Shown piece after piece: positions 3,505 through 52,032 of a stretch of DNA of 64,000 bases (positions within the stretch are counted from its first letter, which is position 1; every line of letters starts with the position of its first letter). Below the pieces are notes generated by a model. It did no database searches and had not been told where the DNA came from. It worked only from the letters and a program-made list of their open reading frames with translations. The stretch is taken from positions 1 through 64,000 of the IMG/VR virus record IMGVR_UViG_3300033233_000010; one strand, written 5' to 3'. Origin of the DNA: a virus. The position numbers and the translations under genes were made by a program.

Positions 3505-4051
3505 CGTCGCTCCGCCGCATCCTGGTGTTCGTGTGGAGCACCAAGGCCGGTTCGCCGTATCCGTCGACCGTCACTTCGATCTGGTCATCGTTACTGACAG
3601 CCGCGATGGCGCGGACACCTTCCTCATAGGACGGCGGTGTGGGTCGGAGCCGCCCCACGAGCAGCTTCAGGGCGTCGCGTTCGCCCGCTCTGAGCTTGCG
3701 ACCTTCGCGCAACCGCCGCGAGATCCGCAGCACCCGACTCCGCGCGTCTCCGACGAGCGCATCGAACCGACTGGTCTTCTTGGGAGCGGTCAACCCGTCG
3801 TGGACCAGCGTAGTGGAACGGCTTAGGCCGTCGATCGGGTAGGAGCGCTCAAGGCGCTCGGTTTCCGTTTCGAGACCTCCGCGCGCCACTTCTTTCAGGA
3901 AGGCGTGGGCCGTCTCGACAGAAACCTTGGCCTCCAGCGCCAGCCATCCCGCGAACTTGAGGCTCGCGAGGTCGTCTGCCGGAAAGCCGAGTCCGTCTGT
4001 AACTCGGTCATAGGCACGAGCGAGGCGCCCGCGCTCGGTAGGTTCGGCCAT
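3488..4051 (-). CDS. hypothetical protein
   Basis: ORF track; GGTAGAAC 6 nt upstream of ATG. Confidence 0.75.
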   Translation of the reverse strand: MAEPTERGRLARAYDRVTDGLGFPADDLASLKFAGWLALEAKVSVETAHAFLKEVARGGLETETERLERSYPIDGLSRSTTLVHDGLTAPKKTSRFDALVGDARSRVLRISRRLREGRKLRAGERDALKLLVGRLRPTPPSYEEGVRAIAAVSNDDQIEVTVDGYGEPALVLHTNTRMRRSDDGQTR

Positions 4052-4070
4052 ACCTTCGTTCTACCCGACG

Positions 4071-4391
4071 CTACCCTAGCGCCGGCCCGTCGGGCGTTCG
4101 CCCGTTGCGGATCGCGCGCCCCGTGAGGTCGTCGGGGGTGATCTTGCCCGCCGTCTTGAGGAAGGCGACGGTCTCCTCATAGGTCTCGCCGAGGTTCCGG
4201 CTCAGGTCGATGAGGAGCTGCTTCTGGTGAGGCTTGAGCTTCCGACCCTCGCGCAGCCGCTTCGCGACGGTGTTGATGACCGTCGCGAGACCTGCGCAGA
4301 GCTGGTCGCTCACCGTTACCCGACGGCGTCGGATCTCGACGTGCCCGCGCTGGTGCTGTCCGTCGTTGAGAAACCCATCAAGAGCACTCAC
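4071..4391 (-). CDS. hypothetical protein sharing RLREGRKL motif with downstream gene
   Basis: ORF track; start uncertain. Confidence 0.6.
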   Translation of the reverse strand: MSALDGFLNDGQHQRGHVEIRRRRVTVSDQLCAGLATVINTVAKRLREGRKLKPHQKQLLIDLSRNLGETYEETVAFLKTAGKITPDDLTGRAIRNGRTPDGPALG

Positions 4392-4392
4392 A

Positions 4393-4623
4393 TCAACCTC
4401 GCTTTGCCTCAGAGGCAGCGACGAGCCGGAGCACCGGATCTGTCTCCGCGTCTCTTACGCACCTCTGGAGCCTGAGCGCCAACCCTTCCACGCGGTCGAT
4501 CGGGATACCAGCCCGGGTAGCGATCATCCTCAAGTAGCGTTCGCGATGTTCGGGCACGAGTTTGCCCTGCTCGGCCATGACCGACTTGAGCGCCTCGTAG
4601 AACCGCGTCAACTCGCCCTTCAC
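4393..4623 (-). CDS. hypothetical protein
   Basis: GTG at 4623 overlaps the 4620 stop. Confidence 0.55.
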   Translation of the reverse strand: MKGELTRFYEALKSVMAEQGKLVPEHRERYLRMIATRAGIPIDRVEGLALRLQRCVRDAETDPVLRLVAASEAKRG

Positions 4624-4919
4624 GGCGAACCTCCGTCCGTCGGAGCTGCCGACACTCTCTTTCCGCTCGCTGTCGTGCGGTAACTGACGGTTACTACTTC
4701 CTCGATGTCGAGAAAACGACCCTTGATGAGACGGAAGGTATCCACCCGCGAACCGCCGCCCGTCGGGTCTGGGCAGTGCTCGGCGATGTAGTCGAGCGCG
4801 TCCTTCTTCGTGTCGAATACCGCCATACGTTCGACCTTGCCCGCCGCCGCATCGAAGTCGGGTTGCTCCCACCACACGAAGAACTTGCTTCCGTCGGACT
4901 TTAGATTCTTCTTGTTCAC
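4620..4919 (-). CDS. hypothetical protein
   Basis: ORF track; GTGA coupling on both sides. Confidence 0.7.
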   Translation of the reverse strand: MNKKNLKSDGSKFFVWWEQPDFDAAAGKVERMAVFDTKKDALDYIAEHCPDPTGGGSRVDTFRLIKGRFLDIEEVVTVSYRTTASGKRVSAAPTDGGSP

Positions 4920-5461
4920 GGCGTTCCTCCGTAGGACGAAAGCGCCGGAAGAACGCCTCCAGACGCCTCGATCAATTCCGCCGCCTTGAGCGGGATAACG
5001 CGCCTGCCGCGGACGTGCTCGTAGCGGACCTGACAGCTCGCACAGAGCACTCGAAACTCAGACAGTGTTTTTTCGCCGCATGCGATAGCCTTCGCGTCGG
5101 ATGGGGTGAGGCCGTTGCGGCGAGCCTTCCTAGCCTTGACCGGCGCATCGTGGCCGTTGATGTGATCGACGGTAAGCACTCGGTAGTCGCGTTCTCCGCA
5201 CCAGGCGCAGACCATACCACCAAGCGAAAGCATGAGTTTGACCCGTGCGCGATGACCTGCGACCCGTCTCCACGCGTTGTGCCAATCGCGGTAACGCGCG
5301 TGATTCTTCTTGGAGCGAGCGCGATTAAGGAGAAGATGGCGCCTACAAAAGCGTTTGCTGCGCGCCGTTCGCTTGCGGTTGCACTTGGCGCACAAACCTT
5401 TCTCTAGGTGTTCTTGTTCCCACCTTCGCCCTCGCTCGGCGATGAGCAACTTGTTGGTCAT
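4916..5461 (-). CDS. HNH endonuclease (free-standing, putative homing)
   Basis: CAWCGE...LTVDHING...LCASCQ HNH/zinc motif; more A/T-ending codons than neighbours. Confidence 0.8.
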   Translation of the reverse strand: MTNKLLIAERGRRWEQEHLEKGLCAKCNRKRTARSKRFCRRHLLLNRARSKKNHARYRDWHNAWRRVAGHRARVKLMLSLGGMVCAWCGERDYRVLTVDHINGHDAPVKARKARRNGLTPSDAKAIACGEKTLSEFRVLCASCQVRYEHVRGRRVIPLKAAELIEASGGVLPALSSYGGTP

Positions 5462-5700
5462 CGGCCCTTGTCCTTCGGCTTGTCCGGGTCCAGCGCGGCC
5501 AGCTCCTCGACCACGTCGGGAACGATCTCCTGACCAGGCGGGATGCAGTAAGCGTGCGTTTCGGTGTAACGGCCATCTGCCCGACGGATGAAGAAGCGTT
5601 GCCCCCACACGTAGACCTCGTATGGGATCTGCCAGCGCGGGACGACGAAATCGGCGATCTTCTCGCCGTCGCTCGTATAGAGGGTGACCTTCTCAAACAT
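5458..5700 (-). CDS. hypothetical protein
   Basis: ORF track; ATGA coupling. Confidence 0.7.
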   Translation of the reverse strand: MFEKVTLYTSDGEKIADFVVPRWQIPYEVYVWGQRFFIRRADGRYTETHAYCIPPGQEIVPDVVEELAALDPDKPKDKGR

Positions 5701-6145
5701 CGTCGAGCCCCGCCAGCCTTTCGATCACGTTGAGCTGCTCAGTCACCATCTTCCTCAACTCGGCCTCGTCGATCGAGAGAGAATTGTCCGGGGAGTTGAG
5801 GCGGAGACCACGCCCTGCTGTGGGAGTTGGACCCGGGAACCCGTCTCGACCGTTGAGCTTCCCCGACGCGATGAGCGCTTTAATCCACTCGACAACGGCT
5901 GAGTTGTCGCGCCTTGCCGCCGCTTCCAGCTCGTCAAGCGTGGGGGGCTGGCGGCAGGAGATGCCCAAAGGCAGCGAGACCGGAGAGATCGTCGCCACAT
6001 CCGTGTTGACTCGCACGAGATACCAGCCGTCGGCAGGCACCACGAACGGCTGGGCGAGCGGCACCTCGGACTTCGAGTCGATTCCGATGCGCTCGATACG
6101 CCTGCCGCAGTTGAGCCACACCCGCCTGCTCTCGGCGCCGCTCAC
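5693..6145 (-). CDS. hypothetical protein with C-terminal tag (NVIERLAGL)
   Basis: ORF track; overlapping neighbours. Confidence 0.7.
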   Translation of the reverse strand: MSGAESRRVWLNCGRRIERIGIDSKSEVPLAQPFVVPADGWYLVRVNTDVATISPVSLPLGISCRQPPTLDELEAAARRDNSAVVEWIKALIASGKLNGRDGFPGPTPTAGRGLRLNSPDNSLSIDEAELRKMVTEQLNVIERLAGLDDV

Positions 6146-6738
6146 AGCGCAGCATCGCCTACCGGGTTGATTCGGTGAAGCCCATCTTGGAGCGTCGGCG
6201 TGGGGGGCTGGGCCGACGGCGGTGCGGCCTTCAAGCAGTCCAGCCGACCGTTGCAGATGTCGATGACGCGCGCCAGTTCCGGGAGGCCCCTGAGCGTTGG
6301 AAACATGGCGAGCGCATCGTCCACGGTACAGTTCTTCGGCCCGTTCCGCACAGCGTGGACTGCGAGCCAGACGAGCTTGATCTCACGCAAGGGGACGTTC
6401 GGCCTGAGCGCCCGTTCGAGCGCCAAGATGGTGCCGGCGATCTCGAAGCCGCTGATCTCGCGCTCGGGGTGCATGTCGTACTCGAAGCCGTCAGCCCACG
6501 TCTTCTTCGTCCACTCCTTACCGAGAATCGACCGACCGATCTTGGTGAGCGTGGCCTCCGCCCGACGCCGCAGCTCGGGCGTCAGGGTGCTCCGCTTCAC
6601 CTTGGATGGGTGCAAGTCCTCCGGCCTGAGCCAGCACTGGAGGCCGTCCTGGTTGTCGGGCGTGGCGACTCTCACGAGAACGTGACCGGCAGGCGGCGGC
6701 TCGCCTTCAACGTAGGGGATTCCCTTGATCTCGCTCAT
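6142..6738 (-). CDS. hypothetical protein
   Basis: ATG 6738 lies 7 nt after GGTAGAAC; GC3-biased frame. Confidence 0.75.
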   Translation of the reverse strand: MSEIKGIPYVEGEPPPAGHVLVRVATPDNQDGLQCWLRPEDLHPSKVKRSTLTPELRRRAEATLTKIGRSILGKEWTKKTWADGFEYDMHPEREISGFEIAGTILALERALRPNVPLREIKLVWLAVHAVRNGPKNCTVDDALAMFPTLRGLPELARVIDICNGRLDCLKAAPPSAQPPTPTLQDGLHRINPVGDAAL

Positions 6739-34687: not shown

Positions 34688-35135
34688 GGACGCCGCAAGG
34701 CCGACCGATCAACCTGATTGGGATGTCTGCATCGCATGGCGACGGATGCTCGTCGCCATGATGAATTCTTCGTGGGACATCGATGTCGCTGTCGAGCCGT
34801 TCCTGCGCAGCACGAGACGGCTCGTCGAGGCGCACTCCGATCCCGATGTCCAGACGGCAGCGCGCAAGCCTCTTCGCGCCGCCTGGATGCTGCTCAAGGC
34901 GAAGCGCTACTACGAGTGCTGCACGGCGGCGCTGGAGTGTCGAGTCCGCATCTTTGGCATCGAGGGGCCCGGTCGCATCGAGGTGGTCGGCCAAGCCCTG
35001 TGTCGAGCCATCCGAGGCGCTTACCCGGCTTCGCCGCCGGGGTTCGAGCGCGTGGGTCGGATGCGGCAGACCGACCGACCCAAGCTCGGCGGCTTCGACT
35101 GGAGTTCCATGCCGACGCCCGATGGAAACGACTGA
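34668..35135 (+). CDS. hypothetical protein
   Basis: ORF track. Confidence 0.6.
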   Translation: MPRGNRRDAARPTDQPDWDVCIAWRRMLVAMMNSSWDIDVAVEPFLRSTRRLVEAHSDPDVQTAARKPLRAAWMLLKAKRYYECCTAALECRVRIFGIEGPGRIEVVGQALCRAIRGAYPASPPGFERVGRMRQTDRPKLGGFDWSSMPTPDGND

Positions 35136-35153
35136 TCGGGGTAGAACCCTGGC

Positions 35154-36008
35154 GTGACGGACGCGAAACGACCGCTGCCCTATCTCATCGCGCGCATCGC
35201 CCACGACGGCAGGCCGTGGCCGGATGACGGCACCTTCGATAAGATCGCGGCGTCCAAGGGGGCCATCCTCGGCGATGACGGTTGGTTCACGCGCGGTCGA
35301 CGCCGAGGCCGGTGGTATCTCGACGTGTCGCTGGCGAACTACGCGCCGATCATCGTGGCGCGCGAAAGGCTCAACGACATCCGCGCGCTCGAAGACCTGC
35401 GTTACCGCGCACAAGTCCACGTCGAGAGGGTACTGGAGCCGCTCTATCAGAAGTCCATCGCTCGGCTCCGGGCAGCTGACGACCCGCGGATCGTCCGCGG
35501 CGACAGGATCATGCGGATCGAGTTCACCAAGGACCACGTCTACTCGTCGGAGAGCTTTCCTACCGAGCGGGAGATCAAGGCCCCGGAGAACGCCGGAATC
35601 GTCGACAGGATCAGCGCAATCCCCACCCCGGACCACGAAGACTTCAAGGCCGGAGAGAACTGGCTGTTTCATCAGCGCGGAATCCACGCGGGTCTGTTCC
35701 GCGTGGGTCGCGCGGAGGCGGCGCTTCGCAAGGCGCTCGACCTCTACCGCCTCAAGCACCACCCGAAGGAGATGAGACTCCACTCGGACAGGCGTCCGAC
35801 CTTCGTCTTCATCATCAACGGGCGCTACTACCCGATCGGGCGCGAGGAGTACCAGAAGAACATCGTCATCTGGCCGCAGCTGTCCGACATCGTGGTCAAC
35901 TTAGACAAGGAGAACACGCGTGGCGAAGATCAAAGTAGTGGACGAGCTTCCGCCCGAGGTAGTGGCGATGCTCGCAGCTCTGTACTCGCGAAGCCCGAAG
36001 AGCGTTGA
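35154..36008 (+). CDS. hypothetical protein (internal GIVDRISAI)
   Basis: GGTAGAAC 6 nt before GTG. Confidence 0.75.
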   Translation: MTDAKRPLPYLIARIAHDGRPWPDDGTFDKIAASKGAILGDDGWFTRGRRRGRWYLDVSLANYAPIIVARERLNDIRALEDLRYRAQVHVERVLEPLYQKSIARLRAADDPRIVRGDRIMRIEFTKDHVYSSESFPTEREIKAPENAGIVDRISAIPTPDHEDFKAGENWLFHQRGIHAGLFRVGRAEAALRKALDLYRLKHHPKEMRLHSDRRPTFVFIINGRYYPIGREEYQKNIVIWPQLSDIVVNLDKENTRGEDQSSGRASARGSGDARSSVLAKPEER

Positions 36009-36075
36009 CGAGCATCTGGAGCAGGTTCTCAAGCGTGGCCCCGACAAGTTCATGGACGACTACTACGTCGGCTAG
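35920..36075 (+). pseudogene. orphaned original 5' end of thyX (51 codons)
   Basis: SD AAGGAG; MAKIKVVDELPPEVVAMLAALYSRSPKSVDEHLEQVLKRGPDKFMDDYYVG* is colinear with the ThyX N-terminus at 36915. Confidence 0.85.
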
Positions 36076-37078
36076 GCTGGCAGTAGATCGCCTACGCTGT
36101 TAGCCTGTCAACGTGGCCCATCGGATCTTGCCGCAAGAACACGTCCGTCGCGTCATCGAGATACACGGCACGCGTCTTCGTGTCGTAGACCACTACGTCG
36201 ATGCCCACACGAAGATCCGCTACGAGTGCCCGAGGCACGGACGGTTCTGGGCAGCGCCGAAGAACGTAGTCACCAGGCGCTCGGGTTGCCGTCGGTGCTA
36301 CGAAGCGACGGTTGGTCCACGGTGCCGAAAGACCCACGCGGTCTACACCGCGGAGGCGCGTGCCGTCGGGATTCGAGTAATCGACCGCTACGTCACCGCT
36401 CTGACGCCGATCCGACATCGATGCGCTAAGGGTCACACCTGGAGCACGTCACCGAACCAGTTGCTCTCGGGCTATGGATGTCCGCTCTGCGACCGATCTC
36501 AATTCAGGCGCCGCCCAGTTCGAGTCGGGAACCGGGAAGTGATGCTCCAAGGTTCCGAGGGAGTAGCTGTTGCACTCATGCTTGCCGCCGGTGTCGATCC
36601 TGACGACCTGGCGTTCACAACCGCAGAGGGCCGCCCGACGTTCCGATACAGATTCGACGGTCGGGTTCGCGTCTACGTGCCCGATGCCTTTCAGCTTTCG
36701 GTGCGTCAGGTCATCGAGGTAAAAAGCGCGGTAACGCTCGGGCTCTACGACTCGACACTGTTTGCGCAAGTGAAAGCCAAGGCCCGAGCCGTCGTAGCTG
36801 CCGGACTCTCGTATCGGCTGATGGTCATCCACCGGAAGCAAAACATCGACATCGGTTCGAGCTGGTTTCGGTGGTCGTGGCGAACACTTAACACGCGATT
36901 CAGGAGGAAGACCCATGCCCAAGATCGTCGTTCTCGACGGAAACGACGTTCCTAGCCCGGAAGACGTGGCGATGCTCGCAGCCATGTACTCACGAGATCC
37001 GCGATCGGTGCTCGACCATCTCGTCCAAGTGAAGCAACGCGGCTCGGCGAAGTTCCACGAGCAGTTTTATGTGGGCTA
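36075..37078 (+). mobile_element. homing-endonuclease cassette carrying a replacement thyX 5' end
   Basis: Bounded by ...GGC TA at both junctions; contains the endonuclease ORF plus a diverged thyX N-terminus. Confidence 0.75.
36113..36955 (+). CDS. putative homing endonuclease: zinc-ribbon repeats plus PD-(D/E)XK (TnsA-like) nuclease
   Basis: ECPRHG...GCRRC; RCAKGH...GCPLC; YVPDAF...IEVKS. Confidence 0.75.
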   Translation: MAHRILPQEHVRRVIEIHGTRLRVVDHYVDAHTKIRYECPRHGRFWAAPKNVVTRRSGCRRCYEATVGPRCRKTHAVYTAEARAVGIRVIDRYVTALTPIRHRCAKGHTWSTSPNQLLSGYGCPLCDRSQFRRRPVRVGNREVMLQGSEGVAVALMLAAGVDPDDLAFTTAEGRPTFRYRFDGRVRVYVPDAFQLSVRQVIEVKSAVTLGLYDSTLFAQVKAKARAVVAAGLSYRLMVIHRKQNIDIGSSWFRWSWRTLNTRFRRKTHAQDRRSRRKRRS

Positions 37079-38246
37079 CGGTCACAAGAGCATCGGCGAC
37101 TGCGGCTCGACGACGGTCTTCTTCGAGGGTGTCTCGATGTTGGCGGCGAAGGCCGTGCAGGACACCCCGCTGTACAACGGCCAGGAAGCCTCGACACGCT
37201 ACATCGACTTCTCCACACAGCTGATTCTCAACCCGCTCGCAACGCCGGGTGGGAAGGCTGTGCAGGACGCCTGGATGGCGCTCTACGCAGACACCATCGC
37301 GGCGCTCAAACCGCTTCTCGCCGAGCGCTACCCCCGGCAACCAGACCAGAAAGAGTCGGTGTGGACGAAGGCGATCGCCGCCAAAGCGTTCGACATCGGG
37401 CGGTCCCTGATACCAGCCGGCGGAACCACCAACGTCGCGTGGCACGTCAACCTGCGCCAAGCGTACGACCACAGCCGGGAGATGCGGAATCACCCGCTCC
37501 CCGAGATCGCCGGCCTTGGCGTGGGCGGAATCGAATGCCTGAAGGAGAAGTACCCGTCGAGCTTCTCCCACGAGGCGAAGCTCAAGGACGACAAGGCGCG
37601 CGAGAATTACAAGGCGGAGGAGCACTACATCGCGAAGAGCATGACGCGCTTCGCTTACTTCGCCGACACCGACGCCGTAGACGGGTTCTACGCCGACTTC
37701 GGCAAGCTCGACCTCCGCGCGATGGAGCCGCTCGGCGACCTCCTCGCCTCGCGACCGCCGCGGACCGAGCTGCACCAGCGCTTCCGCCAGTACGGGGTGA
37801 TCACGTTCAAGTTTCTCCTCGACTTCGGCAGTTACCGCGACCTCCAGCGGCAGCGGAGCGCTGTGCAGGAGATGCCGCTCCTCTCAATGCGCCACGGCTT
37901 CCACCCGTGGTACATCGAGCAGATGCCGCTCGGAACCGAAGCGCAGATCGCAGCGATCGGCAAGCTGGTCGAGCGGCTCCCAGCCGACGACTTCACCCGC
38001 CAGTACTACGTGCCCATGGGCTTCCGCTGCCCGGTCGTGATGACGTGTCCGCTCCCCTCGGCGGTCTACATCGCCGAGTTGCGAAGCGGGAACACCGTCC
38101 ATCCCACCCTCCGCGTGATCGCGCAGAAGATGGGCGAAGTGCTCAAGAAGACGATCCCCGAGCTGGCGATGCACCACGATATGTCGCCCGACTCGTGGAA
38201 CGTGAGGCGCGGAACGCAGGACATCGTAAAGAAAGCATCGGCGTAG
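36915..38246 (+). CDS. thyX: flavin-dependent thymidylate synthase (two-domain ThyX/Thy1)
   Basis: YGHKSIGDCG, EASTRY, DFGSYRDLQRQR, YIAELRS. Confidence 0.9.
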   Translation: MPKIVVLDGNDVPSPEDVAMLAAMYSRDPRSVLDHLVQVKQRGSAKFHEQFYVGYGHKSIGDCGSTTVFFEGVSMLAAKAVQDTPLYNGQEASTRYIDFSTQLILNPLATPGGKAVQDAWMALYADTIAALKPLLAERYPRQPDQKESVWTKAIAAKAFDIGRSLIPAGGTTNVAWHVNLRQAYDHSREMRNHPLPEIAGLGVGGIECLKEKYPSSFSHEAKLKDDKARENYKAEEHYIAKSMTRFAYFADTDAVDGFYADFGKLDLRAMEPLGDLLASRPPRTELHQRFRQYGVITFKFLLDFGSYRDLQRQRSAVQEMPLLSMRHGFHPWYIEQMPLGTEAQIAAIGKLVERLPADDFTRQYYVPMGFRCPVVMTCPLPSAVYIAELRSGNTVHPTLRVIAQKMGEVLKKTIPELAMHHDMSPDSWNVRRGTQDIVKKASA

Positions 38247-38248
38247 CG

Positions 38249-38554
38249 ATGGCGCCGAAGGTGACTCCCGGCGTCTACCGCCACTACAAGGGGGGCCTCT
38301 ATCGCGTGTTCGGCGTTGCGGACTACACCGGCGAGCACGGCGATGTGTTCCCGAGCGCGCACCACCCGAAGACGGAAGGGTTTCCCGAGGGCGAGAAGCT
38401 CGTGGTCTACATCGGCCTCTACGACAACCCGCGCGGCAACCGCCTTTGCACAAGGCCGGTGCGTGAGTGGGTCGCGAAGCTCGTGCTCACCGCGAAGGAC
38501 GGCTACCCGGGAGGCCGAGTCGTCGAGCAGCGCTACGAGCGGATCGGAGACTAG
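38249..38554 (+). CDS. DUF1653-like protein
   Basis: GVYRHYKGGLYRV...LVVY..LY...RP..EW. Confidence 0.8.
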   Translation: MAPKVTPGVYRHYKGGLYRVFGVADYTGEHGDVFPSAHHPKTEGFPEGEKLVVYIGLYDNPRGNRLCTRPVREWVAKLVLTAKDGYPGGRVVEQRYERIGD

Positions 38555-39045
38555 GTCTTCGTCAGCGACTTGATCGCGCCCCGCCGGGCAGCTTCCACGC
38601 TCGGCGGGGCCTTGCAGATCGTCTTGGCGAGCGCCGTGTTGGGCATGGGGAAGCGCGGACCCGGCACGAAGACCGGGTTCGGCTCGACCTTCGAGTCGAG
38701 CATGAGGTCGATCTGCACCTCGCGCGGCGGCGTCCCGACCCGTTGAATGAGCCCGGCGCGCTGCAAGCCGGTGAGGATGCCGCCCAGGTCACGCGGGTCG
38801 ACCGTTACGCCAGCGTGCGCGATCACCTCAGCCGAAGTCCAGCCGAACCGCACGAGCTGTGTGTAGGTGACGACAAGCGTCTTCGTGTACTCGCTCTCCT
38901 CGGCCTTGGCGAAGAGGAAGTCACTAGTGACTTGCCACTTGCATTCGGAGCAGGAGAGCTTGGCGCGACGCGCCCACGCCGTCCACAGAGCGACGGGCGG
39001 AATGGTGCGACCGCAGCCCTCACAAGCGAGATTCTTGCCTGACAT
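38551..39045 (-). CDS. zinc-ribbon plus winged-helix-like protein
   Basis: CEGC...CSEC, then a wHTH-like segment; GGTATAAC 8 nt upstream. Confidence 0.6.
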   Translation of the reverse strand: MSGKNLACEGCGRTIPPVALWTAWARRAKLSCSECKWQVTSDFLFAKAEESEYTKTLVVTYTQLVRFGWTSAEVIAHAGVTVDPRDLGGILTGLQRAGLIQRVGTPPREVQIDLMLDSKVEPNPVFVPGPRFPMPNTALAKTICKAPPSVEAARRGAIKSLTKT

Positions 39046-39802: not shown

Positions 39803-39886
39803 CTAGCCGCAGCCCGTCGTCGCACCACACGTCAAGCAGAACGCGCGTGTCAGACTTACGCGCCCCGTTCCACCACACGCCGGGCA
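39803..39886 (-). pseudogene. displaced duplicate of the nrdJ 3' end (zinc ribbon)
   Basis: CPACGGTGRVSLTRAFCLTCGATTGCG* is in register with the NrdJ end CGVCGNPTIRAATCAFCLTCGATTGCG*. Confidence 0.85.
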
Positions 39887-39908
39887 CTCGTGCTCTGAGC
39901 CCACGATG

Positions 39909-42900
39909 CTAGCCGCAACCTGTGGTGGCCCCACAAGTTAGACAAAACGCGCAGGTTGCGGCTCTGATCGTGGGATTGCCGCAGACCCCACACGGCTGGT
40001 CAGCGGAGAGGGAGAGGCGCGCTCCAGGCTTCTCCGCGAGGAGCTGCCGCAGGTTCTCCCGCACCGTGTCGTTCGCGGCCAGGTCCAGCACGTTCGCCAC
40101 CGTGTTGGCGGGGGCGTGATCGCCGTTCTTCGCGGCGAGGCCCACCGGAAGCTCGTAGCGGTCGGTCTTGGGCTTGGCCTCGTCGACCGGGGCGGGCTTG
40201 TGAGCGAGGTCGTCGCGGTTGAGGTAAGTGACGGCGAGCGTACGGAAGATGTAGTCGATGACGCTGAACGATGACTTGATGCGAGCATCGCCTTGGACCG
40301 GCCCCGACGGCTCGAACTTGGTGAAGGTGAACGCCTCGACGTACTCGTCGAGGGGAACGCCGTGCTGGAGCCCGAGCGAAGTGAGGATGGCAACGGTGTC
40401 GAGAAGGCCCTGGATCGTCGACCCGGCCTTCGCCATGTCGATGAACAGCTCGCCGATCTTCCCGTCGTCGTACTCGCCGGTACGAACGTAGACCTTCTGG
40501 CCGCTGATCGTCGCCTCTTGCGTGAAGCCGCGACGGCGCTTGGGGAGCCGCTTGCGCTCGGAGAGAAGCGGCGGGGCGAGGATGGGCGCGGTCGAGCCTG
40601 GAGCCGGCGTGGGCCGGAGGTCAATGGCAATCGCCTTGGTCTTCTCCTTCTTGGAGGTGAGCACCTGGCATCCCTTGGAGCCGTCGCGGTAGACCGCGAG
40701 CGCTTTGACGCCGAGCTTCCACGACTCGATGTAGACCTGTTCGATCTCGTCGACGGTCGCGCTCTCGGGCATGTTGACCGTCTTGCTGATGGCTCCACAG
40801 AGGAAGGGTTGGGCCGCCGCCATCATCTTGACATGCGCCATAGGCGCGATGAAGCGCTGGCCGCGCTCGCCGCACTGAGTCGCGCAGTCGAAGACGGGGA
40901 GGTGCTCGCGCTTGAGCGTACCCGAGCCTTCGATCGTCTCGTGCGCCGCGATGTGGGCTTCGAGCAGCAGGCGCTCGCTGGGCGCGTAGCCCAGCCGCTC
41001 CAGTGCCGGACCAACCGACTGGTTCACGAGCTTCATCGCACCGCCACCGGCCATCGCCTTGTTCTTCACGAGCGCGAAGTCGGGCTCGATACCCGTCGTA
41101 TCGCAGTCCATGAGAAGGCCGATCGTGCCTGTCGGGGCGAGGAGAGTGAGCTGGGCGTTGCGATAGCCCCACATCTCACCCGCCGTGATCGCGCTCTCCC
41201 ACGAACCCTTGGCCGCAGCGGCGATGTGGATGTCGAAGCGGCTCGGCTTCGATTTCTTCCCCTCGGCGGCGTGCATGCGAGCGACGTTGAGCATGTGCGC
41301 CCGGTTGCGCTCGAAAGCCGAGAAGGAGCCCCTCACCGATGCGATCTCAGCCGAACGGTCCCACGCCGTTGCGGCCATGAGCGACGTGATCGACGCGCAG
41401 ATGCCACGACCCTCGTCCGAGTCGTAGGAAACGCCGAGGCGCATGAGCAGCGCGCCGAGGTTCGCGTAGCCGAGCCCGAGCGGACGTAGCTGGTGGCTAT
41501 TCTCGGCGAACGCCTTGGTGGGGTAGCTGGCGTGATCGACGAGGATGTCCATCGCGAGGATGAGCACGCGACAGACGTGCTCGAATCCTGCGATGTCGAA
41601 GGTGCCGTCGGGGAGCAGGAACTTGACGAGGTTGATCGACGACAGGTTGCACGCGCTGTCGTTGACGAAGTGGAACTCGTTACATGGGTTAGCCGCATCG
41701 ATGCGAGCGAAGTCGGGAACGGTGTTCCAGCGGTTGATCGTCGTGTCGAACATCATCCCGGGGTCGGCGCATCGGTGCGCCGCCTCGGCGATCTTCCGCA
41801 TGAGCTTCTTCGCCTTGAGCGTCTTGGCGACCTTGCCCGTGGTACGGTACTTCGTCTGCCAGTCGCCATCGTTGAGGACAGCGTGCATGAAGTCATCGGT
41901 GACGCGAACCGAGTTGTTGGCGTTCTGGCCCGAAACGGTCGCATACGCCTCGCCGTTGAAGTCGGGCGAGTAGCCGGCCTTCACGAGCACGGCGACCTTG
42001 TCCTCCTCGCGCGCCTTCCACTCGATGAATTCCTCGATGTCCGGGTGGTCGGCGTCGAGGCACACCAGCTTGGCCGCGCGGCGTGTCGTACCTCCCGACT
42101 TCACTGAGCCTGCCGCCGCGTCGTAGACCTTGAGGAACGACATGAGGCCCGATGAGGACCCGCCGCCGGACAGCTTCTCGTTCTTGGCGCGGAGCGTGGA
42201 GAAGTTGGCTCCAGCACCCGAACCGTACTTGAAGATCCGCATCTCCTCGGCGATGCCGAGGCCGATCTGCGTGAGGTCGTCCTTCACCGTACGGATGAAG
42301 CACGCGCTCACCTGGGGGCGCGAGAATCCGTCCAGCGTCTCGCTGGCGACGCCGGTCTTGAGGTCAACGGCCCAGTTGCCGGCGGGATCGCCCTTGATGC
42401 CGTAGCTCTCGTGGAGTCCGAGGTTGAACCACACCGGCGAGTTGAAGGCAACGAATTGACGGACGAGGATGTAGCGCAGCTCATCGCGCAGCGCCCTCAC
42501 GTCTTCGTCGGAGACGAGGTAGCCTTGGCTTCTTCCGGCGTTGGCGATCGCGTTGGCGATCCGGTCGATGACCTGTCGTACGCTCCTCTCGGAGCCGGTG
42601 GCAACCGGCTTTCCGCCGTTCAGGTTGGCGAGCCCGTCGACGACCGACTGCGGGACGCCGCCTTTGCGGAAGTACTTGGAGACGAGGATGTCTCCGGCGA
42701 CCTTCGACCAGGCCACCGGGATCTCCACGTCGTCCATCTGGAAGACGACCGACCCGTCGGGGTTGGCGATCTTCGCCGTGCGACGCTCGAACTTGACTTC
42801 CGCGTAAGGGTCGTGCTCGGAAGCGGTGAAGTGACGCTCAACCGAGATGTGACCGCCGACGCGCGTGGCCGGGCCAACCGCCGCGATGCTCATCCTCTGC

Positions 42901-42965
42901 TGCCTCTCGTGCGCTGGGTCTTCTACAGGAAATGCGAGGCCCATCCTACCGCGATCATCTGACAC
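39909..42965 (-). CDS. nrdJ: class II (adenosylcobalamin-dependent) ribonucleotide reductase with TSCPD and C-terminal Cys4 domains
   Basis: AFNSPVWFN, QVSACFI, GGTTRRAAK, NPCNEF, SACNLSSIN, LLAPTGTIG, EPDF, GAISKTVNMP; start uncertain. Confidence 0.95.
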   Translation of the reverse strand: MSDDRGRMGLAFPVEDPAHERQQRMSIAAVGPATRVGGHISVERHFTASEHDPYAEVKFERRTAKIANPDGSVVFQMDDVEIPVAWSKVAGDILVSKYFRKGGVPQSVVDGLANLNGGKPVATGSERSVRQVIDRIANAIANAGRSQGYLVSDEDVRALRDELRYILVRQFVAFNSPVWFNLGLHESYGIKGDPAGNWAVDLKTGVASETLDGFSRPQVSACFIRTVKDDLTQIGLGIAEEMRIFKYGSGAGANFSTLRAKNEKLSGGGSSSGLMSFLKVYDAAAGSVKSGGTTRRAAKLVCLDADHPDIEEFIEWKAREEDKVAVLVKAGYSPDFNGEAYATVSGQNANNSVRVTDDFMHAVLNDGDWQTKYRTTGKVAKTLKAKKLMRKIAEAAHRCADPGMMFDTTINRWNTVPDFARIDAANPCNEFHFVNDSACNLSSINLVKFLLPDGTFDIAGFEHVCRVLILAMDILVDHASYPTKAFAENSHQLRPLGLGYANLGALLMRLGVSYDSDEGRGICASITSLMAATAWDRSAEIASVRGSFSAFERNRAHMLNVARMHAAEGKKSKPSRFDIHIAAAAKGSWESAITAGEMWGYRNAQLTLLAPTGTIGLLMDCDTTGIEPDFALVKNKAMAGGGAMKLVNQSVGPALERLGYAPSERLLLEAHIAAHETIEGSGTLKREHLPVFDCATQCGERGQRFIAPMAHVKMMAAAQPFLCGAISKTVNMPESATVDEIEQVYIESWKLGVKALAVYRDGSKGCQVLTSKKEKTKAIAIDLRPTPAPGSTAPILAPPLLSERKRLPKRRRGFTQEATISGQKVYVRTGEYDDGKIGELFIDMAKAGSTIQGLLDTVAILTSLGLQHGVPLDEYVEAFTFTKFEPSGPVQGDARIKSSFSVIDYIFRTLAVTYLNRDDLAHKPAPVDEAKPKTDRYELPVGLAAKNGDHAPANTVANVLDLAANDTVRENLRQLLAEKPGARLSLSADQPCGVCGNPTIRAATCAFCLTCGATTGCG

Positions 42966-50809: not shown

Positions 50810-51193
50810 TCAGTTCGGTCCGGTTCCGGCAACGGCCCGAGCCATGTCCTCGCGCGTTCGCTTGCTCGGGCCGAAGTAGAACGCCTTGGCGCCGAACAGA
50901 CGAACGGCGTAGTAGTACCGCCACGCCGCGAACCTGTAGAACAGGCGCTTGAACCAGGTGCTCTGCCTACGCGCGTGTTCAGCCATCGCCTTGTGGAACC
51001 GCCGGTCGGCATCGTAGCGATCACGCTTCGTGCAGCCGAGCCAGTAGTCGAAATCGTGAGTCTCACATGGACAACCGAAAACCAGATCTGGAATTATCCA
51101 TGAGATGCCTCTAGGTCCGCACCCGTTACATACCGCCTTCCGTTCGGCTGGCGTAAGGTCTTCAAACCGTAAGGGACGAGCCGGAGTGGTCAC
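50810..51193 (-). CDS. phage NGCG...CxxHDxxY protein (phospholipase-A2-like HD motif)
   Basis: NGCGP...IPDL.FGCPCETHDFDY..G....R..AD..F. Confidence 0.6.
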   Translation of the reverse strand: MTTPARPLRFEDLTPAERKAVCNGCGPRGISWIIPDLVFGCPCETHDFDYWLGCTKRDRYDADRRFHKAMAEHARRQSTWFKRLFYRFAAWRYYYAVRLFGAKAFYFGPSKRTREDMARAVAGTGPN

Positions 51194-51915
51194 TTGATTA
51201 CCCTTGCGATCTTCCAACCGTGATGAGCTATCTTACGCCCATGCACAACCTCGTAGAACCCCCATTCACCCATTCCGCGCTCGCGGCAAAAGACCTTGAG
51301 GTTGTCAGTCTCGAAGACAGTCCCGCTCGGATCGGTGATCGTGTAGCGAAACGTGCAGTGCGCCTCGCTGATCTTACGCCGATGTTCGGGCGTCTTTGGT
51401 TTTCCCGTGTGCAGGCAGCGTAGACGCTCGACTTCCTTTAGCGAAAGACGACGACCCAGGTGCGTCGCGCTAATCTTTGCCCGCGCCTCCGGCGAGTGTG
51501 TCTGGCCCCACATCGAGTTCTTCTTGCCGAGCTTGCACACCCGCATCTTCCTGATAGAGGCTGAGCGATGGCGTCTGCCGAAACCGCCGAGACCTCCCGG
51601 TGTGCAGTTGTAACCGTTCTGAATAGATGCCAGCCTGGCGATCCAGTGCCGCTCGGCGGTATCAAGTTCGGCTTGGTTAGAACACGCAGCCACCACTGAC
51701 ACTGTAAACGCGGTCCAACCATACTTGGCTATTGCGCACGCCAGCTTAGGCTGTCTTCGGCAATGACCTCTTCGGTAATTGTCCAGGCGATGCGCTAGAT
51801 CAACCGTCTGCCCGACATAGACACGACCACTCGGGCTACGAAGACAATAGACGACGCCGAAGTGGTCGCACGCAGACTCAAAGACGAAATTCGATACGCT
51901 GCTCTCGATACTCAA
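51065..51915 (-). mobile_element. GIY-YIG cassette carrying a recoded replacement 5' end of its target gene
   Basis: Both junctions follow the G-C-P-C codons; duplicated N-terminus is synonymously recoded. Confidence 0.8.
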
Positions 51916-52032
51916 ACACGGACACCCGAAGATCAGATCGGGGATGATCCACGAGACGCCCTTGGGACCGCAGCCGTTCGAGACAGCTGCGATCTCTTGC
52001 TTGGTCAGGACTTCCCAGGTGATCGAGGTCAC
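51190..52032 (-). CDS. GIY-YIG homing endonuclease with NUMOD3-like repeats, fused in frame to the original 39 codons of the target gene
   Basis: GVVYCL...VYVGQT...R...Y; HS.E...KIS repeats; NGYN. Confidence 0.9.
   Translation of the reverse strand: MTSITWEVLTKQEIAAVSNGCGPKGVSWIIPDLIFGCPCLSIESSVSNFVFESACDHFGVVYCLRSPSGRVYVGQTVDLAHRLDNYRRGHCRRQPKLACAIAKYGWTAFTVSVVAACSNQAELDTAERHWIARLASIQNGYNCTPGGLGGFGRRHRSASIRKMRVCKLGKKNSMWGQTHSPEARAKISATHLGRRLSLKEVERLRCLHTGKPKTPEHRRKISEAHCTFRYTITDPSGTVFETDNLKVFCRERGMGEWGFYEVVHGRKIAHHGWKIARVIK

Follow-up and report, generated by a model that had tools for sequence, protein, structure and literature searches.

A homing-endonuclease-like gene and a putative replacement start in the thyX gene of an uncultured giant phage

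How can a nuclease gene settle inside a metabolic gene of a phage and leave that gene complete? On the usual view, a homing endonuclease gets into an essential gene only inside a self-splicing intron or an intein, and otherwise stays between genes. Here we describe a locus in a 64,000-nucleotide stretch (the window) of a 121.8-kb record from an uncultured giant phage, in which the 5' end of a thyX-like gene occurs twice, with a nuclease gene in between. The best explanation of this locus is replacement of the thyX start by a free-standing homing endonuclease, to which we assign a probability of roughly 0.8.

The interrupted thyX locus

The features of the locus are as follows (window positions):

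35907-35912, plus strand: AAGGAG, a Shine-Dalgarno-like motif in front of the stub (the old thyX start), read directly, 7 nt before the GTG at 35920
35920-36075, plus strand: the stub, probably the stranded former thyX 5' end; GTG start, 51 codons and TAG, ending in KFMDDYYVG
36070-36082, plus strand: left junction GGCTAGGCTGGCA; the match to thyX extends as far as GGC TA, and the base that follows makes the stop
36113-36955, plus strand: free-standing homing-endonuclease-like gene of 280 aa with zinc-finger and PD-(D/E)XK regions (Pfam, PHROGs, AlphaFold)
36902-36907, plus strand: AGGAGG ribosome-binding site of the working thyX start, within the nuclease 3' end, read directly
36915-37076, plus strand: putative replacement thyX 5' end of 54 codons, ending in KFHEQFYVG (from GC3 and comparison with uninterrupted alleles)
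37077-38246, plus strand: resident ThyX-like body, from Tyr55 (TAC GGT CAC, YGH) to the stop (Pfam PF02511)

The complete thyX-like ORF (36915-38246) starts with ATG and encodes 443 aa; 41 nt (36915-36955) are common to it and the nuclease 3' end. Its product matches PF02511 (Thy1) with 58.9 bits against a cut-off of 24.8, and is a member of the ThyX/Thy1 family, a putative flavin-dependent thymidylate synthase. Over 3,500 homologues were found, of which the closest is 63% identical, and the protein belongs to a long (~430 aa) subfamily common to jumbo phages and candidate-phyla bacteria.

A first-pass annotation, made from the letters of the window, had described a 51-codon ORF with its own Shine-Dalgarno sequence, colinear with the ThyX N-terminus. 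We find it in that place, and BLASTP aligns it to ThyX residues 1-54 with 31 of 54 positions identical (57%, E 3e-15), far beyond chance. In a search across the whole 121.8-kb record, thyX 5'-end homology occurs in these two places only. It breaks off sharply: the stub reads GGC TA/G where the complete gene reads GGC TA/C GGT CAC, and the stub stop falls inside the Tyr codon of the conserved G/YGHKSIGDCG segment. The alignment thus agrees with the endpoint noted earlier and with the placement of the insertion just 5' of the conserved GHxS motif. Pfam, PHROGs, AlphaFold and the ORFs likewise bear out a zinc and PD-(D/E)XK nuclease gene between the two copies, its 3' end overlapping the new thyX start. 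The gene is out of frame with both copies, is bounded by stops and has its own start.

Among the contigs of the probable source DNA sequencing run, a single contig spans the whole stretch and no alternative joint is present, a result that bears neither on expression nor on co-existing empty alleles. A promoter and terminator scan of 35000-38800 gave nothing exceeding shuffles, and 35000-39000 had no blastn match among GenBank phages.

Such an arrangement could reflect an intron, an intein or a ribosomal bypass that joins the stub, as exon 1, to Tyr55 onward. In favour of this, the stub is equipped with a ribosome-binding site and a start codon, and its end falls exactly on a codon boundary within a conserved motif, where introns often insert. 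Against this, the thyX ORF downstream is whole, carries an AGGAGG and an ATG of its own and has an N-terminus conserved under purifying selection; the frame and flanking stops of the nuclease gene do not fit either, nor does any Rfam family match on either strand at E up to 1. Furthermore, in a related phage (L005) the stub has an internal deletion of about 13 codons and in another (L075) there is no stub, yet thyX is full-length in both. A group I intron was rejected specifically, given the lack of a ribozyme match (Rfam, E up to 1, 35000-39000, both strands), the self-sufficient downstream gene and the deleted L005 stub. An intein was rejected in view of the stop after the stub, the nuclease in another frame and the lack of a Hint/intein match in Pfam. 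Splicing is not needed, because the downstream gene is complete, Rfam is empty, and the stub is deleted in L005 and missing from L075; we consider this explanation extremely improbable. On the same grounds, the independence from introns and inteins proposed earlier is supported.

Two thyX starts of probably different origin

Two IMG/VR phages (L004 and L005) share the order stub, nuclease, thyX and the left junction GGCTARGCTGG with the window: the junction is GGCTAGGCTGGCA in L004, as in the window, and GGCTAAGCTGGTA in L005. The thyX genes of the three are just 56-61% identical, and the genes flanking the L005 locus are unrelated. These relatives were recovered through alignment-based scans; neither ThyX nor the nuclease gave a match in IMG/VR when used as a single query sequence. 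The stub is present in 3 of 41 IMG/VR thyX loci, the other 38 being uninterrupted.

For L004, an uninterrupted allele is available (P0022), and its N-terminus matches the L004 stub at 89%. The L004 ThyX itself (P0006) agrees with P0022 at 39/57 positions (68%) before the junction and at 52/54 (96%) right after it (p 1e-4). Before the junction it is closer to P0009, from another lineage, with 44/53 positions (83%) identical there and 225/377 over the body (p 8e-4). Since the match to P0022 jumps from 39/57 to 52/54 at that point, the L004 ThyX is a chimera breaking exactly at G/Y. The comparison with an empty allele that the first-pass annotation had proposed was thus possible at this sister locus, and came out as predicted: P0022 matches the stub and the body better than it matches the current N-terminus.

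For the window's own thyX, the searches gave no close counterpart without an interruption (at best 65% identity over the body), and a tree of ThyX bodies places the window body decisively with neither the stub-type nor the new-type lineages. Because of this, the assignment of native and foreign parts rests here on GC3, on the type of N-terminus and on analogy with L004. The claim of a chimeric ThyX with a foreign N-terminus therefore stands for L004 through P0022 and P0009, and is carried over to the window by these three lines of evidence.

The first is composition. GC3 in the window is 0.70 in the nuclease gene and 0.72 in the new start, against 0.88 in the body (p 3e-9 and 0.003, respectively); the stub, at 0.78, falls between them, and its difference from the body is not significant. 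Across the three genomes the values are 0.66-0.70 for the nuclease, 0.61-0.72 for the new start, 0.78-0.86 for the stub and 0.86-0.89 for the body, and the step coincides with the junction in each. The nrdJ gene (0.86) resembles the window thyX body. Together with the switch of partner at G/Y in L004, the GC3 step in three genomes suggests that the exchange boundary lies at or next to the putative target of the nuclease.

The two N-terminal types also differ by a 3-residue indel, with VDxxPPE in the stub and VLDGxDVPxPED in the new start. The window stub is of the family-consensus type, retains all family-invariant N-terminal residues and best matches the N-termini of P0007, P0012 and P0017 (70-75%).

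Divergence between the two copies points the same way. For stub against new start, pS is 0.67, pN 0.28 and omega ~0.2 in the window; over all three genomes, each compared within itself, pS is 0.63-0.99 (saturated), pN 0.12-0.28 and omega ~0.1-0.2. Saturated synonymous sites combined with dN/dS of about 0.2 argue for two alleles that diverged while working, and not for a local duplication.

A local tandem duplication would have copied the thyX 5' end in place, for instance by illegitimate recombination at the landing of the nuclease, after which one copy drifted; neither a foreign N-terminus nor homing would be involved. Two copies in direct orientation about 1 kb apart fit it, and a nuclease as diverged as thyX in three phages fits one old, vertically inherited event. 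However, a drifting dead copy should approach an omega of 1 and lose invariant residues, all of which the window stub has kept. The account also leaves aside the L004 stub, which resembles an external uninterrupted allele while the working N-terminus resembles a different lineage, and the GC3 step at the junction in three genomes. We hold it very unlikely.

The preservation of the stub raises another alternative, that it is useful in itself, either because it is expressed, as a short peptide or regulator made of the ThyX N-terminus, or just because it provides a homology arm, rather than being a decaying remnant. In the window and in L004 its ORF is open with ribosome-binding site and start, its family-invariant residues are intact, and omega between stubs of different genomes is 0.16-0.38. 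Yet the same low omega is expected if each stub worked as a gene start until a recent invasion; moreover, L005 carries its stub internally deleted and L075 does without one. Gene calling picked up no more than a 35-aa piece of the stub, and the search for free-standing homologues gave none: in a set of 5.8 billion proteins, the sole match of the 51-aa sequence is that piece of the window's own stub. A useful stub is therefore an unlikely option, and replacement of the start remains the preferred reading.

Over its last 25 nt, up to the junction, the stub is identical to the consensus of 21 IMG/VR alleles that are uninterrupted. In the new copy, ~10 of the 25 positions immediately 5' of the junction depart from that consensus, and the sequence 3' of the junction is identical to it. 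The off-pattern codons pointed out earlier are indeed there: TTC CAC GAG CAG TTT TAT GTG in the new copy vs TTC ATG GAC GAC TAC TAC GTC in the stub. This substitution pattern suggests that an allele without the nuclease would be cut site-specifically and that the occupied allele would be resistant. FH-type tails occur as well on long contigs in which no nuclease homologue was detected (P0002, P0009, P0047 and P0066), which means that the recoded tail is not confined to alleles that carry the nuclease and could be just a variant of certain lineages, or a relic. In turn, two alleles putatively linked to the nuclease (P0005 and P0097) are without the FHE signature.

The nuclease and its coupling to thyX

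The nuclease gene is intact. Residues 1-130 of its product comprise two zinc-finger DNA-binding modules (CapR/DUF4379/DUF723-like), and residues 131-267 a predicted PD-(D/E)XK domain (DUF7487). The protein matches DUF4379 (a treble-clef zinc family), CapR and DUF7487 in Pfam, and endonuclease families in PHROGs. P-D191 (36683-85) and E202 (36716-18)-V-K204 (36722-24) are invariant in its 17 close homologues, which are 51-66% identical.

The AlphaFold model has a pLDDT of 84. Aligned with VIA-align, its residues 131-267 resemble TnsA (Z 7.5), Vsr (Z 7.0), I-Bth0305I (Z 5.6) and I-Ssp6803I (Z 4.7), as well as Hjc, with the caveat that top hits of this tool usually reach Z 7-8, which may mean just a common arrangement. 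Because these values are middling, it is fold and motif together that assign the domain, as a prediction, to the restriction-endonuclease-like PD-(D/E)XK fold with a D...(D/E)xK motif. Foldseek of the model against the PDB gave nothing at E <= 0.001, the top weak rows being RecE and Cas4; a profile of the nuclease had no match among PDB sequences, and no solved structure is recognisably similar to it in sequence.

The zinc-finger modules are repeated in the family, with a copy number from 2 to 4, and the window nuclease is without the first module of its L004 and L005 relatives. We rejected the idea that it is a deletion derivative: as two modules are frequent among family members (P0130, P0134, P0136), the absence of the first module is copy-number variation and no sign of decay.

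The nuclease tail AQDRR, conserved in 13 of the 17 homologues, corresponds to thyX PKIVV in another frame; its retention indicates an overlap with a PKIVV-type start of thyX in most of the family. A metagenome scan added just two loci: L075, where the nuclease lies directly upstream of the full-length thyX, and L077, where a 4-module relative precedes another Thy1-family gene. Putative linkage of ThyX to nuclease homologues was further seen, from identical lengths of the longest contigs, for P0005, P0006, P0039 and P0097. Altogether, physical coupling to the start of a thyX gene holds for nearly the whole family. A scan of genome contigs returned only distant zinc-module matches in three MAGs, which gave no clue to the host.

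A stand-alone ORF, sporadic presence (17 close homologues, set against the thousands of ThyX homologues) and the exchange boundary described above point to a free-standing (intronless) homing endonuclease gene. Conversely, the nuclease might not, or no longer, be a homing enzyme: it could be a domesticated phage nuclease, used in competition or DNA processing, that happens to sit beside thyX, the stub being an unrelated recombination scar. The homing assignment is drawn from sequence, the family has few members, which differ from each other about as much as their host genes do, and its zinc-finger modules occur in many phage nucleases of other contexts. Such a bystander should neither stay with the thyX start almost throughout its family nor have the L004 recombination boundary exactly at the end of the unit adjoining it, and we judge domestication improbable.

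The nucleases of the three stub-bearing phages are 63-65% identical, about as diverged as their thyX genes, and there is no sign of very recent transfer among them. The element may still be mobile.

Proposed route of invasion and its precedents

We propose that the nuclease gene lived immediately upstream of a phage thyX-like start and overlapped it. The unit made of the nuclease gene and the first 54 thyX codons would have recombined into a resident thyX at the Gly/Tyr codon boundary. The resident's first 51 codons would have been displaced rather than replaced, and left as an untethered stub. The working ThyX would then combine an imported start with the resident body, a chimera formed with neither RNA nor protein splicing.

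In this scheme, the nuclease would cut uninterrupted thyX at or near the site coding for KFMxxYYVG/YGHKS. The occupied allele would be doubly immune: the stub holds the upstream half-site alone, and the new copy holds the downstream half-site behind recoded FHExFY codons. In later rounds of homing, recombination could use the stub on the left and the thyX body on the right as homology arms. These arms would explain why three diverged phages share the left junction and why their stubs still resemble recently functional N-termini.

The closest precedent comes from fungal mitochondria, where mobile endonuclease ORFs (mORFs) form 'gene hybrids' in Allomyces macrogynus atp6 and in Glomus atp6, atp9, cox2 and nad3 (PMC3630166). 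The duplication of gene ends by such elements, mentioned in the first-pass annotation, is thus matched in the literature. As in the phage, an endonuclease ORF sits in a protein gene outside any intron or intein and brings a foreign copy of the gene end that it displaces; the native end is stranded alongside, and the two copies have different phylogenetic affinity. Unlike in the phage, the mORFs are organellar LAGLIDADG or GIY-YIG enzymes that replace the 3' end and lie downstream of the inserted end, often fused in frame. The phage cassette replaces the 5' end and brings a new ribosome site along with the start codon; its zinc-finger/PD-(D/E)XK nuclease lies upstream in an out-of-frame overlap. 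It is the mirror image of a mORF gene hybrid, working alike and not a member by descent.

In T4-like phages, the free-standing endonucleases SegB, SegF, SegG and MobE perform 'intronless homing': in the accepted model, they cleave a conserved gene next to their own site in relatives that have no nuclease, and spread when recombinational repair co-converts the flanking sequence, the donor's target copy being protected by sequence differences (PMC2988022, PMC2330249, PMC2790892). The thyX nuclease is similarly a stand-alone gene between or beside genes, and L075 looks just like these cases. The T4 enzymes are GIY-YIG or HNH and leave no duplicate end of the target gene, whereas here the old start survives and the exchange boundary is confined to a single codon junction.

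Insertions of mobE or mobA split nrdA or a topoisomerase gene, and mobA is part of a bypass cassette with gene 60 (PMC2988022; bioRxiv 10.1101/2022.08.31.505936). There too, a phage homing endonuclease lies within a critical region of an essential gene of nucleotide or DNA metabolism and the cassette preserves gene function; it does so with two polypeptides or through bypass, while thyX would remain in one piece thanks to a complete replacement start.

On the enzyme side, PD-(D/E)XK and Vsr-like homing endonucleases are represented by I-Ssp6803I and I-Bth0305I (PMC3239194). The thyX nuclease shares with them a predicted restriction-endonuclease-like catalytic fold (Z 4.7-5.6, compared with 7.0-7.5 for Vsr and TnsA); they are intron-encoded and it is free-standing. 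Repeated zinc-finger modules of varying copy number also characterize the CapR/DUF723 endonucleases of Vibrio phage ICP1 (PMC10448857), which join CapR to T5orf172/GIY-YIG or HNH where the thyX nuclease has DUF7487.

We found no published description of gene-start replacement by a nuclease in phages; the phenomenon is known at gene ends from fungal mitochondria. Here it would amount to a third route, in which a spare, differently spelled start is carried along and the target gene stays intact without splicing. Such events would create chimeric metabolic genes with sharp recombination boundaries that confuse gene phylogenies, and would leave behind short orphan ORFs that annotation pipelines may call genes or 'fragmented genes'. 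The junction probably marks the recognition site of an uncharacterised zinc-finger/PD-(D/E)XK family with a long conserved target, and use as a rare cutter is conceivable.

The L075 nuclease resembles an ordinary free-standing endonuclease, which suggests that the stub may be a by-product and not a fixed part of the design; it may result from homing into a genome with no homology upstream. A bolder view, which we put at somewhat under even odds, takes the stub as the left arm of the cassette: stub, nuclease and recoded start would make up a context-independent homing unit, the YGHKS-coding site would be a hot spot, and the route would be a general, splicing-free one. If so, any thyX allele could be invaded whatever lies upstream of it, the stub being refreshed from each new host, and gene-start replacement would be a general, so far undescribed, way of colonising essential phage genes. 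The stretch coding for KFMxxYYVG/YGHKSIGDCG would then be attacked independently by unrelated endonuclease-like genes; in one further locus (L018), a 419-aa HTH protein breaks thyX 18 nt upstream.

Finally, further nuclease genes and an orphan nrdJ end lie in the same 64-kb window; their presence suggests that this process may have done much to shape the genome of the phage.

Duplicated thyX start and the intervening nuclease

Every feature that the first-pass annotation had described for a duplicated thyX start with an intervening nuclease is present in the window:

35920-36075: stub ORF, 51 codons, with an AAGGAG ribosome site and a GTG start, matching ThyX residues 1-54
36113-36955: nuclease ORF, 280 aa, between both thyX copies
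36915-38246: complete ThyX-like gene, 443 aa (Pfam Thy1, 58.9 bits)

The stub is 57% identical to ThyX residues 1-54 (E 3e-15). Alignment of both copies places its stop exactly where it had been read: the homology ends after GGC TA, the next base being G in the stub (TAG), while the complete gene continues with C GGT CAC (YGH). The last 41 nt of the nuclease ORF overlap the new thyX start, as first noted, and the thyX AGGAGG lies inside that ORF. Upstream, a 284-aa ORF with no family match (35154-36008, plus strand) overlaps the stub by 89 nt in a different frame; a 27%-identical homologue 5' of the stub in the related locus L004 ends 44 nt before it. The tail of the window ORF may be true coding sequence or read-through from the rearrangement of the region.

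Pfam assigns to the nuclease DUF4379 (a treble-clef zinc finger), CapR and DUF7487, and PHROGs matches it to endonuclease families. Among 5.8 billion proteins it has 17 close homologues (51-66% identity) with 2 to 4 zinc modules each, across which P-D191 and E202-V-K204 are invariant. In an AlphaFold model (pLDDT 84) its C-terminal domain aligns with TnsA (Z 7.5), Vsr (Z 7.0), I-Bth0305I (Z 5.6), Hjc and I-Ssp6803I (Z 4.7), scores of a range that may mirror merely a common arrangement. Fold and motif together support the prediction of an intact PD-(D/E)XK nuclease and, with the domains, agree with the zinc-module nuclease initially proposed. Most homologues end in AQDRR, which is the thyX start PKIVV in another frame, so that this nuclease family is physically coupled to the beginning of thyX. 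The variation in zinc-module number is consistent with recombination among the repeats, such as ICP1 endonucleases are reported to undergo (PMC10448857). The window nuclease is without the first 61-residue module of its counterparts in L004 (3998-5026) and in another related locus, L005 (4019-5032), the break lying directly after the start codons.

Related loci

An alignment-based IMG/VR scan yielded 41 thyX loci, three of them with a second N-terminal thyX fragment. In L004 the stub has 57 codons, closes with KFMDQYYTG-stop and precedes a nuclease of 342 aa (65% identical) and thyX; in L005 the stub has lost ~13 codons internally and stands before a nuclease of 337 aa (63%) and thyX. The DNA of the left junction is conserved: the window and L004 both read GGCTAGGCTGGCA, and L005 reads GGCTAAGCTGGTA. 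Neighbour genes are common to the window and L004, and none is common with L005. At locus L075 the nuclease lies immediately 5' of thyX without a stub. L077 (Ga0334722_10006615, 3989-6492) holds a 430-aa, four-zinc-module relative directly 5' of a different, 404-aa Thy1-family gene, with no stub seen within 4 kb; the nuclease family may track thyX genes across subfamilies.

Judging from its sequence, L018 (IMG/VR 3300020180_000014, 3554-5001) appears to be an independent event on the same thyX region in another phage lineage. Here the homology of the stub to thyX extends to KFM and is lost 18 nt before the Gly-Tyr codon boundary that marks the junction; an unrelated ORF of 419 aa and a complete thyX come next. 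In this ORF only a C-terminal HTH is recognisable, resembling the HTHs of HNH and other endonucleases from phages. At the protein level the L018 stub and working start share 83% identity, with saturated synonymous sites.

The IMG/VR record, 121.8 kb long with the window as its first 64 kb, comes from a sediment metagenome (~65% GC, ~42% complete by CheckV), and a 254.6-kb contig with the same ThyX protein is also on record. Since, in addition, the nearest GenBank phage relatives of the ThyX-like protein are jumbo phages (Vibrio phages Yong and BONAISHI, Tunturiibacter phage Tunturi_5), the record most likely represents part of the genome of an uncultured jumbo phage.

Origin of the working thyX start

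The working thyX start (the first 54 codons) is foreign on four lines of evidence: the L004 chimera, composition, allelic divergence and N-terminal type. The comparison with thyX of related phages suggested in the first-pass annotation found, for L004, the uninterrupted protein P0022, to which the L004 ThyX body is closer (77% identity) than to any other relative; over the N-terminus, P0022 shares 89% identity with the stub of L004 and only 68% with its working start. The latter is 81-83% identical to another homologue, P0009, whose body reaches only 60%. Split at the junction, the match of L004 to P0022 is 39/57 on the N-terminal side and 52/54 directly beyond (p 1e-4), and that to P0009 is 44/53 on the N-terminal side and 225/377 across the body (p 8e-4). 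On these alignments, L004 ThyX reads as a chimera whose affinity flips from P0009 to P0022 exactly at the Gly-Tyr boundary, in line with the foreign N-terminus first postulated.

In the window, L004 and L005, third-codon-position GC (GC3) is 0.66-0.70 in the nuclease and 0.61-0.72 in the working start, against 0.86-0.89 in the thyX body (p 3e-3 to 7e-14); the stub (0.78-0.86) shows no significant difference from the body. For the window itself, this contrast is the main evidence pointing to a foreign working start. Within each genome, stub and working start differ with pS 0.63-0.99 (saturated), pN 0.12-0.28 and omega ~0.1-0.2. Because synonymous differences are saturated but non-synonymous ones few, the two appear to have diverged as functioning alleles, not as a live and a decaying copy. 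The window stub is of a short VDxxPPE type (closest to P0007, P0012 and P0017, 70-75%), and the working start of a VLDGxDVPxPED type. The window ThyX body is 58-65% identical to all relatives and roughly equidistant from them, so that the tree assigns it to neither N-terminal type.

Three rivals stand under the label ALTERNATIVES: splicing, duplication in place with drift, and stub function. RNA or protein splicing rejoining the stub to the thyX body is unnecessary and unsupported, as the downstream thyX is complete by itself, the L005 stub is internally deleted and L075 has none; the arrangement needs neither an intron nor an intein, as originally proposed. The omega values, the match of the L004 stub to an external allele and the GC3 step all contradict a thyX start duplicated on the spot and then left to drift. 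The stub may have a function of its own, as its ORF is whole in two genomes; L005, however, has a broken one and L075 none.

Putative target site and route of replacement

Over its last 25 nt, the stub nearly equals the consensus drawn from 21 uninterrupted alleles. At ~10 of these 25 nt the working copy departs from that consensus (TTC CAC GAG CAG TTT TAT GTG), bearing out the off-pattern codons noticed earlier, and 3' of the junction it is identical to it. Such substitutions are what one expects if the nuclease recognition site spans the junction; the stub would retain the upstream half-site only, and the working copy the downstream one only. Two observations qualify this reading: FH-type tails are present also on long contigs without a homologue of this nuclease, and two nuclease-linked alleles have other tail variants.

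We propose that the free-standing endonuclease 5' of thyX would cut nuclease-less alleles near the Gly-Tyr boundary, and that donor-templated repair would copy the nuclease with the donor's resistant gene start. In a recipient without upstream homology the old start would be displaced rather than replaced, leaving the stub. Stub and gene body could thereafter be used as two homology arms, which would explain the conserved junction alongside stubs still looking recently functional. Setting aside its biochemical claims, the overall interpretation in the first-pass annotation is supported at the sequence level.

This design mirrors the 'gene hybrids' of fungal mitochondrial mobile ORFs, in which insertion of an endonuclease together with a foreign C-terminus leaves the native one stranded (PMC3630166), whereas here it is the N-terminus. 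It also extends the intronless homing of the T4 Seg and Mob enzymes, whose genes either lie between others or divide a gene so that two polypeptides result (PMC2988022; PMC10448857). Literature searches found no description of gene-start replacement of such kind in phage.

Other nuclease and gene-end traces also occur in the window. The nrdJ protein ends in AFCLTCGATTGCG-stop, and the same 13 residues and stop recur in another frame ~100 nt 3' of the nrdJ end; this orphan 3'-end duplicate has no nuclease gene adjoining it now. Two further nuclease genes are recognised by domain calls.

39909-42965, minus strand: nrdJ, class II ribonucleotide reductase, 1018 aa (Pfam RNR barrel, class II N-terminal and TSCPD domains)
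39803-39992, minus strand: region with the repeated nrdJ end
51190-52032, minus strand: GIY-YIG and NUMOD3 nuclease gene, 280 aa
28231-29166, minus strand: nuclease gene with two endonuclease VII domains, 311 aa
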